Shown: positions 1 to 64,000 of the stretch, one piece after another
How positions within the stretch are numbered: position 1 is the first letter of the stretch
How the letters are laid out: the number at the start of each line of letters is the position of its first letter
Source of the DNA: Narcine bancroftii
Taxonomy: Eukaryota
Direction of reading: 5' to 3'
DNA: 64,000 nucleotides
Assembly: GCF_036971445.1 (NCBI RefSeq)
Contig: NC_091473.1
Span: 205,158,377 to 205,222,376 of the forward strand
Notes under the pieces: generated by a model
The model's database searches: none
Told to the model about the DNA's origin: nothing
What the model saw: the letters and a program-made list of their open reading frames with translations, nothing else
Program-made: the position numbers and the translations under genes

Positions 1-52
1 GCGCGGTGCGGCGCACACTGTTCTTTGGAAATTGCGGTGACGCACAAAACCT
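1..52 (+). pseudogene. 3' end of a family-D V remnant (1-13) plus its 23-RSS (14-52), cut by the window start.
   Basis: ...TGCGCGGTGCGGCG followed by CACACTG, 23-bp spacer, ACAAAACCT. Homologous to the ends of the other V_D copies. Confidence 0.55.
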
Positions 53-460
53 GATTCTGAAATCGGATGTGGGTGGAATCAAAACGGGAGGAAGAGGACG
101 GGAGATCATGTTAGTGATTGCGAAAGGCCGAGCAGGTGAAAATGTTAGATAGAATGAGCTAGAGGAATGGAATGAAAGAAGCGGAGAGAGGGAGCGAGGG
201 AGGAGATAAAAAGACGGAAGACACTGGGAATGTACAGATAGAGGGAGAAACCGTGAAAGGAGAGCGCGATGCAGAGTGTCTTCTCAACGCGGTCTGATTG
301 GTTCACGAATGAGATCATCAACCAATCAATCGTATGTGAAGGAAACTCATTCATTTCTGACCCAGGGTGTTTGTCCGCTCATAACATCGACCGACCCGTA
401 TTTCCCTATGTTCAGCTGTAATGCAGGGAAATCTTCGCATTTGACCTTAATCCGCAGATC

Positions 461-1326
461 ATGGCTGTTCTGTGTTTTTTGCCGATTCTTTTGGTCGTTT
501 GGACTGGTGAGCATGTCCGATATGTTACCATCCCCAGTAGTCCACGTGTTTTTAACTTTAACATCAGTAAAGTTAGATGAGTTCCCCCGGAAGAATCAAA
601 CTCCTTAGCTCTCCCTCCGTTTACTCGTTTACTCGTTCACTGTCTACGTACTGATCTACGTCGCGCGCCCCCGTTCTCTCTCTCTCTCTCTCTCTCTCTC
701 TCTCTCTCTCTCTTTCTCTCTCTCTCTGTCGCTCCTCGCCATTCTAATGAGAGAGAAACAAGTCCAGTCTCAAAAGAGATTTTTCAGCATCCGACGTGAG
801 TTTGCGACCTTGTGTGGGGTGAGCATTTGGAAAATTTCTTTCTTCCGAATTGAAGCCGAGCATCATGTTGCTCCTGAAGATTGGGCAGAATCTTAGGGCC
901 GATCTGCCAGCTGAGACAGATTGGTCAACAAGTGTCGCGCGGGTGCAGTACGGTCCAGCGGTGTTCACTCATTGTGCTTTGTTACAGGGGCCAGTGCGAA
1001 TGATTCAGTGACACAAAGACCGCCGGAAATGATAGTCGATGAAGGGCAGTTTGTGGAACTGAACTGTAGTTACTCGATGACAACCTACGCTTATTTTTGG
1101 TACATTCAAAATCCCGGAAAATCTCCAAAATATTTGCTGAAAATCCAACTGTCAGGAGACGTGTTTCCTTCTCGCGATTGTCCTGAGAGGATATCGGGTT
1201 CCTTAGAGAAAACGAGCCAGAGATTCCACCTTAATATCTCACAAATCCGCGTGGATGATTCCGCCGTGTATCTCTGCGCCGTGGAGCTCACGCTGTTCCA
1301 GGGCGGCGGGGATCTGCACAAAAACT
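461..1326 (+). CDS. Germline V gene segment, family A, copy 1. L-PART1 461-506, leader intron 507-987, L-PART2+V-REGION 988-1288, 23-RSS 1289-1326. Apparently intact.
   Basis: Inverted CCAAT pair at 296-326. ATG followed by 15 hydrophobic codons plus 1 nt, then GTGAGC donor. ttacag acceptor. V exon in frame with ORF 921..1490 (DSVTQ...NCSYS...FWYIQNPGKSPKYLL...DSAVYLCAVEL). Heptamer CACGCTG, 22-bp spacer, nonamer ACAAAAACT. (CT)n microsatellite 676-727 lies in the intron. Confidence 0.8.
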
Positions 1327-2418
1327 CACCTCGAAAATTGTCATCACGCGCGGTGGCTTGGGGGCGCTCTCGGTCCCCAGAAGCCAGTTCTGTCAGTCAG
1401 ATTAATAGAAGGGTGAAATCAACGCCGAGGTGCTGGAGATTTTCCCTCATCTTGCGTTTCTTTTTCTCTGCATCCGTTTCGTTTCTTTGAGGTTGAAGGT
1501 AGGATGACAGCGAGGGAGAAAAAGTGAACAGCTGTTTCCCAGAATATAGTGGGAAAAGGGAAGTTGTGTTTTTGTGATGGAAATTGAGAAGTTGATAAAG
1601 GCGGGGTGGGTAGGGCAAGAGCGTGGCCCCACATTCATGAGTGCATATGGCATAGAGAAGAGGACAAAGCAGGCATTGATGCGTGTTTCTGATCATCGTA
1701 GAGGAGGTGATGTTGCTGATGAGCTCTGTTGGGGGCTTCCAATGAGGATATCACAGATCCAGTCACAGATGGCTGGACAAAGTAACGGATTCTTTAGATT
1801 GGTCATCCGCTTTGCAACTGTGTGGGCGTTGAACGCCGGGCATTAGTCCTTGAACAGCAAACCCACCATGGTATTTCGGCGGTATAGGTGATTTAATAAA
1901 TAGTGGACCGTAAACGGTAGAGGGTGGGGGGGGGGGGTCGTCAGTTGTGGCGACGGGCGATGGGCGAATTGAAGTGTGTCCAGGTCCTTCCCGTGAGAGG
2001 TGTTAATGCGCTCGATAACCAAACGGCGAAAACATTTCCTCCAAGTCCGTTAACTTGTTCCTGTTGGGCAACAGGAGAGAGCACCGTGGAAGCAAAATCT
2101 CACAGAAATGCTGGAGCAACACAGCCGGTGTTGCAGAACCCAAAAGGATGGAAAGATACCTCACCGATATTTCGGGTCCGAGCCCTTCTTCAATGAATAA
2201 GAAAATCTCTTGAATGTGTTAAAATTAAGACTGCAGACTGACCGGGTTTGTTTGGGGGGGGGGGGAGTGGTGGGGGGGCTGAGAGGGGCAGTTCAAAGCG
2301 ACAGTTGATAATTGGCTATGGAAGGTAAAGAGATGAGAATTGATTTTGTTTCTGTCAACGGGGACAGAGGGAAACTCACATAGACAGAGACACAGAATGA
2401 GAGATAGAGATAGATAGA

Positions 2419-2582
2419 TGTGTGTGTGTGTGTGTGTGTGTGTGTGTGTGTGTGTGTGTGTGTGTGTGTGTGTGTGTGTGTGAGAGAGAGAGAGAGGGAG
2501 AGAGAGAGAGGGAGTGTGTGTGTGTGTGTGTGTGTGTGAGAGAGAGAGAGAGAGTGAGAGAGAGAGACAGAGAGTGAGAGAG
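2419..2582. repeat. Compound microsatellite: (GATA)-like run, then (GT)n(GA)n(GT)n(GA)n.
   Basis: Direct reading: (TG) about 32 repeats, (GA)n, GGGAG, (TG)12, (GA)n. This is the source of spurious low-complexity ORFs such as 2225..2626. Confidence 0.95.
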
Positions 2583-2667
2583 TGGAATCGAAATAGAGGG
2601 AGAGAGAGGGCCGCGGGGAAATGCAAAAGGGGGAAGAATTAATTGTTTATCCTGACTTCCCCCCCTT

Positions 2668-61358: not shown

Positions 61359-62452
61359 CACCTCGAGAATTGTCATCACGCGCGGTGGCTTGGGGGCGCT
61401 CTCGGTCCCCAGAAGCCAGTTCTGTCAGTCAGATTAATAGAAGGGTGAAGTCAACGCCGAGGTGCTGGAGATTTTCCCTCATCTTGCGTTTCTTTTTCTC
61501 TGCATCCGTTTCGTTTCTTTGAGGTTGAAGGTAGGATGACAGCGAGGGAGAAAAAGTGAACAGCTGTTTCCCAGAATATAGTGGGAAAATGGAAGTTATG
61601 TTTTTGTGATGGAAATTGAGAAGTTGATAATGGCGGCGCGGGTAGGGCAAGAGCGTGGCCACACATTCATGAGTGCATATGGCATAGAGTAGGGGACAAA
61701 GCAGGCATTGATGCGTGGTTCTGATCATCGTAGAGGAGGTGATGTTGCCGATGAGCACTGTTGGGGGCTTCCAATGAGGATGTCACAGATCCAGTAACAG
61801 ATGGCTGGACAAAGTACCGGATCCTTTAGATTGGTCTTCCGCTTTGCAACTGTGTGGGCGTTGAACGCCGGGCATTAGTCCTTGAACAGCAAACCCACCA
61901 TGGTATTTCAGCGGTATAGGTGATTTAATAAAGAGTGGACCGTCAACGGTAGCGGTGGGGGTGGGGGTCGGTCGTCACTTGTGGCGACGGGCGATGGGCG
62001 AATTGAAGTGTGTCCAGTTCCTTCAAGTGATAGGTGTTAATGCGCTCGATAACCAAACGGCGAAAACATTTCCTCCAAGTCCGTTAACTTGCTCCTGATG
62101 GGCAACAGGAGAGAGCAACGTGGAAGCAAAATCTCATAGAAATGCTGGAGCAACACAGCCGGTGCTGCAGAACCCAAAAGGAGGGAAAGATACCTCACCG
62201 ATATTTCGGGTCTGAGTCCTTCTTCAATGAATAAGAAAATCTCCTGAATGTGTTAAAATTAAGACTGCAGACTGACCGGTTTTGTTGGGGGGGTGGGGGG
62301 GGGGGTGGTGAGGGAGAGGGGCAGTTCAAAGCGACAGTTGATAATTGGCTATGGAAGGTAAAGAGATGAGAATTGATTTTGTTTCTGTCAACGGGGACAG
62401 AGGGAAACTCACATAGACCGAGACACAGAATGAGAGATAGAGATAGATAGAT

Positions 62453-62630
62453 GTGTGTGTGTATGTGTGTGTGTGTGTGTGTGTGTGTGTGTGTGTGTGT
62501 GTGTGTGTGTGTGTGTGTGTGTGTGTGTGTGTGAGAGAGAGAGAGAGAGAGAGAGAGAGAGAGGGAGAGAGAGAGAGTGAGAGAGAGAGAGAGAGAGAGA
62601 GAGAGAGAGAGAGAGAGAGAGTGAGAGAGC
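62453..62630. repeat. Compound (GT)n(GA)n microsatellite.
   Basis: Direct reading. Confidence 0.95.
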
Positions 62631-62714
62631 GGAATCGAAATAGAGGGAGAGAGAGGGCCGCGGGGAAATGCAAAAGTGGGAAGAATTAATTGTTTATCCT
62701 GACTTCTCCCCCTT

Positions 62715-63057
62715 TCAGTTGTTTGCTGATTTTGTGGACCGATCCACTTGGCGAACCTCTGACTGATTGGGTAGCTTGCGTCCCTCCCGGTTCAGCGCAA
62801 TTTCTCGCATATTACATTCATTGCGTGTTTCGTTCAGACACAAATTGAAATATCGTGGCCCATATATTAAATGCTTAAAAATTATAACCGAGACGACGTG
62901 GTTCTGCCTCACGTTTGACTGGACAGGATGACGTTAGAGAAAAGGGGCTGGATATTTCACCTCAATACGTCGAAAACGTTTGTAGCGGACTTGATGGTTT
63001 ATCTCAGGGCGGTGTGGCTCACGCTGTTCTTTGGAAATAGCTGGACGCACAAATCGT
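62715..63057 (+). pseudogene. V pseudogene, family E, copy 7.
   Basis: Homologous. Nonamer at 63049-63057. Confidence 0.6.
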
Positions 63058-63436
63058 ATGTGGTTTGAAATGAAACGCGAGAAAGAGGATGCTAGAGCAC
63101 GTGAGGGATTGCTTAATGTTGAACAGGTGAAAATGTGAGACAGAGTGAGCGTCAAGAATAGAACGAAAGAAGGAGAAAGGGGGAGAGGGAGGAGATTAAA
63201 AAAAGGGTAGATGCGGGGAGTGAACAGGTAGAGGGTTCGTGAAGCGAGGGGAACGCGATGCAAACTGTCTTCACTAACGCGTTCTAATTGGTTGGATAAT
63301 GACCACACCAACCAATCCTGTATGATGGAAACACTCTGATATATGTCCAAAGTGTTAGACCGCTCATAACATCGCCCCACCAATTGTACTGCGGTAACAT
63401 AAGGAAACCTTCGTTGATGATCTTAATCCACATACC

Positions 63437-64000
63437 ATGTTCTTCGTGAATGGTTTGGTGATTCTTTGGGCCGTTCTGACTAGTGAGCATGTCTGACTGG
63501 TCAGCGACTTCTGCCCATTGTCCTCTCTCTACAAATCTCTAGCTTTAAACTAATTAAAGACGGACAAATTCCCCAACTTCCTTTGCTCTTCCTTGCACCT
63601 TCTTCCTCCGCTTACTCATTTACACACTCTCTGTGTTTACTGAACTTCCTCGCGGTTTCACTGTCGCACTCCTTCCCCACCTCTCTCGCTCTTCGCCATT
63701 TTCGTACGAGGGAAACGGGGACACATACAGAGTTTCTGCTGCTCCCGACGTGGGTACGCAACCTGATACCTCCGAATTTAGACCGGTCATCATGTTCCTA
63801 CTGATTTGTTGGCTGATTATATGCACCGTTCCGCCTGTGGAGACTAACTGGTCAACTAGTGCCGCGCGGGTTCAGTGCCATCCAGCGGCGTTCACACATT
63901 TTGTTTTGTTCCAGGGGCGAGGGCAAAGGATTCGGTGACACAAAGCCCGCCGCAAATGTTAGTGGATAAAGGGCAGATCGTATCAATGAAATGTAGTTAC
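63437..64000 (+). CDS. V gene segment, family B, copy 7, partial. L-PART1 63437-63482, V exon from 63915, truncated by the window end.
   Basis: Leader, donor GTGAGC and acceptor ccag are present. The FR1 reading frame is intact as far as the window extends. Confidence 0.5.

Follow-up and report, generated by a model that had tools for sequence, protein, structure and literature searches.

A head-to-tail array of seven-V homology units in a probable T-cell receptor alpha-type germline V region of Narcine bancroftii

In the channel catfish, the variable (V) genes of the TRAD locus lie in "homology units" of 4 to 12 kb that are about 96% identical and hold one to three or more V genes each (PMC8656973). 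Multi-V arrays such as TRDV2-TRAV1-TRAV1-TRAV4, which occurs four times, are repeated there; pseudogenes and remnants of the 5' or 3' part of V genes are scattered over the locus; and the expansion has been ascribed to unequal crossover, possibly aided by LINEs (PMC8656973). The concept of the homology unit goes back to work by Glusman et al. on TRA/TRD in mouse and human (cited in PMC8656973). Here we describe a stretch of 64,000 nucleotides (nts) from Narcine bancroftii (RefSeq assembly GCF_036971445.1, contig NC_091473.1, positions 205,158,377 to 205,222,376 of the forward strand), hereafter the window. An initial annotation, made from the letters of the sequence, had read it as a tandemly amplified V cassette of ∼10.2 kb belonging to a rearranging antigen-receptor locus. 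We conclude, with a probability of roughly 0.82, that the window comes from the germline V region of a T-cell receptor (TCR) alpha-type locus (TRA or TRA/TRD) in which a homology unit of seven V elements has been amplified head to tail.

Self-BLAST of the window gave head-to-tail repeats at offsets of 10,180, 10,163, and 20,365 bp with 97 to 98% identity, which bears out the proposed cassette. The repeat unit is ∼10.18 kb long, and the units are 96 to 98% identical to each other. When mapped onto one reference unit, u4 (the "reference positions" in Table 1 are coordinates in u4), the 64-kb window proved to hold three complete and four partial copies. The order of elements in the complete units is V_C, V_D, V_A, a G-tract, a (TG)n(GA)n microsatellite, V_E, V_B, V_F, ∼2 kb of other sequence, and V_G. 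This is the order given by the initial annotation, including the G-tract and the microsatellite, which were found between V_A and V_E. However, the same annotation had the ordered block recurring at least six times, and only three units are complete, with V_C present four times, not six.

The V-exons of the six V_A copies start at 987, 14246, 30507, 40682, 50859, and 61020 (tblastn). The V_A starts reported earlier are exact as positions, and so are the last three periods of 10175, 10177, and 10161 bp, but each of these starts is 66 bp before the V-exon and therefore falls in the leader intron; the gene starts at a leader ATG ∼500 bp upstream. An extra half-unit and a full-length LINE-1 (L1) element of 6,076 bp account for the V_A spacings of 13,259 and 16,261 bp; the L1 had been missed.

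Units u2 to u6 are related in a star-like manner, with substitution divergences of 1.2 to 2.6%, so the earlier description of the last copies as near-identical was too strong. For the 5' units the divergence is 2.5 to 3.9%, and 17 parsimony-informative sites group u1 and the extra half-unit, u1', against the other units. Tandem repeats as similar as these (∼97% identity) are notorious for mis-assembly, and their copy number cannot be verified from the window itself; a false duplication of reads or haplotypes, the real genome having one or two units, could give an array of this kind. We consider that very unlikely. Every copy has its own private substitutions (1.2 to 3.9% pairwise), private indels, and microsatellite length; one copy contains a unique L1 with its target-site duplication; two junctions are irregular; and the filled and empty sites of an older L1 fragment split the copies in agreement with the substitution data. 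Moreover, six or seven distinct copies could not arise from two haplotypes. The window contains a tandem of multi-kilobase, V-bearing units with high identity and copy-specific differences, as in a homology unit expansion.

A total of 41 V-like elements were found by tblastn, every one on the + strand. V_A, V_C, and V_B have the two-exon structure of V genes. A hydrophobic leader of 15 codons plus 1 nt (MAVVCFLPILLVVLT in V_A, MSLLSCLLILWAFLT in V_C, and MFFVNGLVILWAVLT in V_B) is followed by a phase-1 GT-AG intron of 287 to 480 bp, with a GTGAG donor and a ...TTCCAG acceptor, and by a V-exon of ∼97 codons; a leader exon and a phase-1 intron are what is expected of a germline V gene. The leader intron of V_A contains a (TC)n run (40397-40421; equivalents at 675-726, 13950-13991, 30206-30239, 50576-50597, and 60715-60758) that varies from 11 to 22 repeats among copies and is the source of most of the variation in intron length (450 to 480 bp).

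The products of V_A and V_C match the Pfam V-set domain (E values of 1.3e-12 and 3e-14, respectively), have Cys23, Trp41, and Cys104, and terminate in ...DSAVYLCAV. That ending and the framework region 2 (FR2) motif were present as first described. V_B, which has no Cys104, and the decayed V_D to V_G elements do not have the complete set of V-set residues. An AlphaFold2 model of V_A, made with the six paralogues in the window as the alignment, was unusable (mean pLDDT of 42). In addition to Cys23 and Cys104, there is an extra cysteine in FR3, at V-exon residue 65 in the motif DCPER/K (e.g., the TGT at 40874-40876 in ...SRDCPERISG...). It is kept in every V_A and V_C copy and in most V_B copies; the D/F-type relics have Arg at this position (HDRPDRM).

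The 250 bp upstream of the leaders of V_A, V_C, and V_B are 81% identical, versus 75 to 79% for the V exons. Common to these upstream regions are paired boxes, ATTGG and CCAAT, ∼130 to 160 bp before the ATG, and the regions also hold the motifs TCATATCTG and GACCTTAATCC. They fit a candidate V promoter.

A search for recombination signal sequences (RSSs) gave 21 strict 23-type RSSs, against 0.76 expected from shuffled sequences. All are on the + strand, and each immediately follows the 3' end of a V element. The layout is a CACGCTG-class heptamer, a spacer of 22 to 23 nts, which fits a TRAV or TRDV element, and an A-rich nonamer (ACAAAAACT or ACAAAAAAC). The initial annotation gave every V a 3' RSS, which is correct for V_A, V_C, V_D, V_E, and V_F; the RSS of V_G is degenerate, and in V_B the CAC of the heptamer is lost in copy 1 and the RSS is displaced in the others. 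Nearly all V elements have the nonconsensus heptamer CACGCTG, which contains a CpG, instead of CACAGTG; such sites are at 1289, 14548, 28483, 30809, 38671, 40984, 48850, 51161, 61321, and elsewhere. Among V_F and V_D elements the variants CACACTG, CACTCTG, CACAATG, and CACATTG occur, some of them compatible with CpG decay.

With a leader, a phase-1 intron, a V-set domain, and an adjacent 23-type RSS all found, the proposal that these are germline V segments of a V(D)J-recombining receptor stands. Nonrearranging V-set receptors of the NITR type were considered and ruled out: an RSS directly abuts each V, and what lies downstream of each V is the next V promoter or transposable element fragments, whereas in a gene of that type more Ig, transmembrane, or cytoplasmic exons would follow and there would be no RSS.

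The class of receptor was addressed by similarity. In a search of PDB (threshold of 1e-8 per stretch, single V domain), nearly all of the chains that passed on a single V domain were TCR alpha chains, with scores of 47 to 59 bits, among them 42F3, D10, TK3, TRAV20, TRAV12-2, TRAV12-3, and MAV36. The lone exception was 4onh_A, which is labeled "T-cell receptor beta." The top-ranked entries were multi-V antibody constructs, the scores of which are summed over domains. A profile of V_A, V_C, and V_B was also searched against 5.8 billion proteins and gave 83 matches, all of them V-set domains. The matches named by receptor class were all TCR alpha V regions, namely, the TRAV9 group (RL-5, CTL-F3, MD13, TRAV9-1, and TRAV9-2) and TRAV6-2; all are mammalian and 30 to 39% identical. 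Two independent similarity searches thus support V_A and V_C as TCR-alpha-type V segments, as far as can be judged from sequence. Of the alpha/delta fit first proposed, it is the alpha type that is supported, and delta is not separable from it.

A 23-nt spacer behind V is common to IGHV, lambda IGLV, TRBV, TRGV, and TRAV/TRDV, and therefore the RSS cannot discriminate among receptor classes. This, and an identity of no more than 39% to any named protein, would allow the V elements to belong to another class with a 23-RSS, i.e., IGHV, lambda- or sigma-type IGLV, TRBV, or TRGV. We regard this as extremely unlikely: antibody and TCR beta chains are present in PDB by the thousands, yet almost only TCR alpha passed on a single domain, and every class-named match in the protein database was a TCR alpha V. 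In addition, the FR3 pattern R-I-S-G-S-L-E-K-x-S-Q-x-x-H-L-N-I-S-x-x-x-x-x-D-S-A-V-Y-L-C-A-V is alpha-like, judging by the known motifs of TRAV genes.

Several points weigh against assigning the window to a TCR alpha-type locus. The nearest named relatives are distant at the identities given above, the retrieval of candidates in the profile search depends on shared 5-mers, and the class assignment comes from similarity searches. In nearly all copies the heptamer departs from the consensus at positions 4 and 5. The copy number comes from a single assembly. Finally, there is no J, D, or C segment within the 64-kb window. No 12-type RSS was found on either strand, and the sole match to a loose J pattern in the window, at 61956 (WGWGSVV), is weak, lacks an RSS, and runs into stop codons. 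Because no D, J, or C element is present, the linkage of the array to a TRA/TRD locus is something that we infer. Rfam and tRNA scans of the entire window gave no match.

If the window does lie in a functional locus, an intact V_A or V_C would be transcribed from its own CCAAT-box promoter. RAG1/2 would then cut at the 23-RSS of the V element, paired, as the 12/23 rule demands, with a 12-RSS next to a J (or D) segment farther downstream, and the product would be a V-J-C alpha chain or a V-D-J-C delta chain.

How many of the V elements could take part is limited. Apparently functional are ∼8 of the 41, namely, four of the six V_A and all four V_C copies, and the other 33 are defective. V_D, V_E, and V_F are strongly decayed, although FR3 and the RSS are still recognizable, and of V_G only an FR3 fragment is left. 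All V_B copies have in common a 14-bp deletion that includes the Cys104 codon and brings "...VYL" up against a CACGCAG heptamer with a 24-nt spacer, and most have stops or frameshifts as well; because that deletion removes Cys104, V_B is a pseudogene family. The defects of V_B, V_D, V_E, V_F, and V_G are common to all units and are therefore older than the amplification; decay after the amplification is confined to two V_A copies (3 and 5). Thus, the mix of intact and decayed paralogues noted earlier is there, with intact copies of V_A and V_C, but V_B does not count among the intact, and the decay mostly predates the amplification to which it had been ascribed.

Such decay, together with the missing J, D, and C elements and a young L1 insertion, would also be found in an orphon, that is, a decaying V-only cluster that duplication has separated from the functional TRA/TRD locus and that contributes nothing to the repertoire. 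V_A has no clear purifying selection (pN/pS of 1.48 from 13 variable sites), and its two pseudogenes decayed after the amplification. However, TRA/TRD V regions usually extend for hundreds of kilobases without J or C segments (1,285 kb in catfish [PMC8656973]), and so their absence from the window is expected. Furthermore, the eight V_A and V_C copies listed above retain their leader, splice sites, conserved residues, and RSS; pN/pS for V_C is 0.57 (6 variable sites); and the promoter is more conserved than the coding exons. An orphon is, in our judgment, unlikely. Copies differ by 1.0 to 1.6% in the V exons versus 1.2 to 2.6% in the flanks. Because the numbers of variable sites are too small, we make no claim of diversifying or purifying selection.

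A different view of V_A and V_C is that they are a lineage-specific TRAV subgroup expanded under selection, for a ligand class or for biased, semi-invariant-like usage, instead of by neutral crossover. The CACGCTG heptamer, the solvent-side position of the extra FR3 cysteine (DCPER), and the recent amplification are the features behind this idea, which has no further support, and we consider it quite unlikely. We return to the array as a homology unit expansion in a TCR alpha-type V region, and to how it may have formed.

Within a unit, V_A, V_B, and V_C are 75 to 79% identical, V_D and V_F are 80% identical, and self-BLAST gave cross-matches of 74 to 80% between submodules. A D/E/F-type relic follows each A/B/C-type V at a distance of 1.2 to 1.9 kb. 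These regularities suggest that the unit itself arose through earlier duplications of a module of two V elements, an A/B/C-type V and then a D/E/F/G-type V.

The order of later events can be read from the L1 elements. An old 3' fragment of L1, bounded by a 12-bp target-site duplication (CTCATATTTTCT), is present in u2, u3, u4, and u5, whereas the site is empty in u1 (5999-6010) and u1' (11407-11418), where there is a single copy of the 12-mer. It follows that, after a founder unit had gained the L1 fragment, an amplification of that unit of at least 4-fold took place in a short time. The identity of 96 to 98% between units and the filled and empty sites both agree with the recent segmental amplification claimed in the initial annotation.

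The u1/u1' and u1'/u2 junctions have only 1 to 2 bp of microhomology and are therefore taken to be nonhomologous events; homologous unequal crossover at these two junctions was tested by junction homology and rejected. The u1/u1' breakpoint (∼7210-7226) falls precisely where the 23-nt spacer of the degenerate V_G RSS ends and a nonamer would be expected to start, and the sequence on its other side is located downstream of the V_A RSS by ∼520 bp; this placement may be a coincidence. The regular gain of units, in contrast to the two irregular junctions, was most likely by unequal crossing-over, given the uniform register.

The history of the array would then have four steps. First, duplications of the two-V module would have built the seven-V unit. 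Second, the L1 fragment would have inserted into a founder unit. Third, there would have been at least one burst of head-to-tail amplification after that insertion, through unequal crossing-over between misaligned units. Last would have come the gain of the half-unit, the deletion of 1.5 kb with one V_G/V_C pair, and the insertion of a young full-length L1.

This young L1, which interrupts the V_G relic of u2, has all of the parts of a LINE-1. Its poly(A) tail is 63 nts long and reads as poly-T on the + strand (21267-29). The insertion is flanked by a perfect 14-bp target-site duplication (ATCTCCGGAGATCT at 21254-21267 and 27344-27357), and the 5' untranslated region is short, at ∼133 bp. Its second open reading frame, ORF2, matches Pfam RVT_1 (9.6e-43) and Exo_endo_phos (3.7e-12), and ORF1p matches the structure of human L1 ORF1p (2ykp; E value of 1.3e-13). 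Because both reading frames are open, the insertion is probably very young, and the element is possibly still active. The nearest named relatives of ORF2 are teleost proteins with no more than 45% identity (Kryptolebias, 45%), and the best match of any kind is a protein from a metagenome scaffold, at 54%; since the best match is only 54% identical, this L1 belongs to a family undescribed in the databases searched. These relatives hint at a host outside the mammals. It resembles the L1 lineages of teleost fishes in having an ORF1p with a coiled coil, an RRM, and a C-terminal domain, an ORF2p with an APE endonuclease and a reverse transcriptase, a poly(A) tail, and a target-site duplication.

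TABLE 1 Units, V elements, and other features of the window
Feature	Positions	Strand	Remarks
Unit u1	1-7225	+	Cut by window start; reference positions 2201-8141 and 9034-10171; old L1 fragment site empty
Extra half-unit u1'	7226-12372	+	Reference positions 4013-8141 and 9034-10002; only V_E, V_B, V_F; junctions with 1-2 bp microhomology
Unit u2	12373-21267	+	Reference positions 1290-10180; first 1.29 kb including V_C missing; V_G relic split by young L1
Unit u3	27344-37529	+	Complete
Unit u4	37530-47708	+	Complete; reference unit
Unit u5	47709-57855	+	Complete
Unit u6	57856-64000	+	Cut by window end
G-tract repeat	41949-41984		V_A-V_E interval; length different in every unit
(TG)n(GA)n compound microsatellite	42115-42268		V_A-V_E interval; length different in every unit
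Putative V promoters	39934-40183 (V_A), 37786-38035 (V_C), 42826-43075 (V_B)	+	250 bp upstream of leaders
V_A copy 1	461-1326	+	Leader ATG to nonamer; intact
V_A copy 2	13737-14585	+	Intact
V_A copy 3	29997-30846	+	V-exon at 30507; pseudogene: 1-bp insertion in T-run of leader exon, frameshift
V_A copy 4	40184-41021	+	Intact; leader MAVVCFLPILLVVLT then G; 452-bp intron
V_A copy 5	50363-51198	+	V-exon at 50859; pseudogene: V-exon codon 79 is a stop
V_A copy 6	60502-61358	+	V-exon at 61020; frame open; 1-bp deletion past Cys104 in junctional end, probably harmless
V_C copy 1	27848-28521	+	Intact
V_C copy 2	38036-38709	+	Intact; leader MSLLSCLLILWAFLT then G; 287-bp intron
V_C copy 3	48215-48888	+	Intact
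V_C copy 4	58360-59033	+	Intact; heptamer CACGGTG
V_B copy 1	3389-4217	+	Pseudogene: stop codon, Cys104 absent, heptamer CAC lost
V_B copy 2	8862-9674	+	Pseudogene: stop codon, Cys104 absent
V_B copy 3	16622-17423	+	Pseudogene: frameshift, Cys104 absent
V_B copy 4	32870-33698	+	Pseudogene: frameshift, Cys104 absent
V_B copy 5	43076-43879	+	Open frame; 14-bp deletion takes Cys104 and joins "...VYL" to heptamer CACGCAG (24-nt spacer)
V_B copy 6	53214-54041	+	Pseudogene: frameshift, Cys104 absent
V_B copy 7	63437-64000	+	Cut by window end
V_D relic, 3' end and 23-RSS	1-52	+	Cut by window start
V_D relic and 23-RSS	12988-13332	+	Start approximate
V_D relic and 23-RSS	29247-29591	+	Start approximate
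V_D relic and 23-RSS	39435-39779	+	Cys23 and Trp41 lost; stops, frameshifts
V_D relic and 23-RSS	49614-49958	+	Start approximate
V_D relic and 23-RSS	59753-60097	+	Start approximate
V_E relic	2667-3010	+	22-nt spacer, weak nonamer ACAAATCGT, Cys104 replaced
V_E relic	8139-8482	+	
V_E relic	15900-16243	+	
V_E relic	32148-32491	+	
V_E relic	42353-42696	+	
V_E relic	52491-52834	+	
V_E relic	62714-63057	+	
V_F relic and 23-RSS	5241-5585	+	
V_F relic and 23-RSS	10698-11042	+	
V_F relic and 23-RSS	18446-18790	+	
V_F relic and 23-RSS	34722-35066	+	
V_F relic and 23-RSS	44901-45245	+	∼80% nucleotide identity to V_D
V_F relic and 23-RSS	55064-55408	+	
V_G fragment	7048-7225	+	FR3 only; RSS remnant stops at u1/u1' junction
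V_G fragment	21167-21267 (left), 27344-27435 (right)	+	Split by young L1
V_G fragment	37437-37620	+	RSS degenerate
V_G fragment	47613-47800	+	RSS degenerate
V_G fragment	57760-57945	+	RSS degenerate
Young full-length L1	21268-27343	-	6,076 bp; in FR3 of u2 V_G relic
L1 ORF2	21583-25380	-	1265 aa; endonuclease and reverse transcriptase
L1 ORF1	25981-27210	-	409 aa
Old L1 3' fragment	45671-46563	-	893 bp; inverted 5' part (twin-priming type); equivalents at 19216-20109, 35492-36384, 55833-56727

For annotation, the window contributes ∼8 potentially functional TRAV-type segments and ∼33 defective ones to the germline repertoire, and the stretch should be flagged for possible copy-number polymorphism or mis-assembly. 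The filled and empty L1 sites provide an internal chronology that runs from module duplication through the L1 fragment and the burst of units to local deletions and the new L1. Current understanding is unchanged by these results, since the growth of TRA/TRD V regions by homology units is textbook knowledge in comparative immunogenetics, and the array is an ordinary example of it.

The best matches of V_A and V_C over the full V domain are mammalian TRAV9-group V regions and the TRAV20 and TRAV12 chains of PDB. Shared with these are Cys23, Trp41, Cys104, the FR2 motif WY.Q.PG..P..L, and the FR3 motif ...L.I......DSA.Y.CA. Unlike them, V_A, V_B, and V_C have the extra FR3 cysteine, FR2 reads WYIQ or WYIH, and the heptamer is CACGCTG, not CACAGTG. 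The leader introns, at 287 to 480 bp, are longer than those of catfish; they are above the 80 to 250 bp called typical for V-introns and below the mean of 758 bp in the axolotl TRA locus (PMC12529555). The leader exons are 46 nts, compared to 40 to 43 nts for TRAV and 64 or 67 nts for TRDV in catfish (PMC8656973). Like the units of the catfish TRAD locus, those of N. bancroftii are several kilobases long, highly identical (96 to 98%), arranged in tandem, and made up of several V genes and remnants, but each has seven V elements, only two of them usable.

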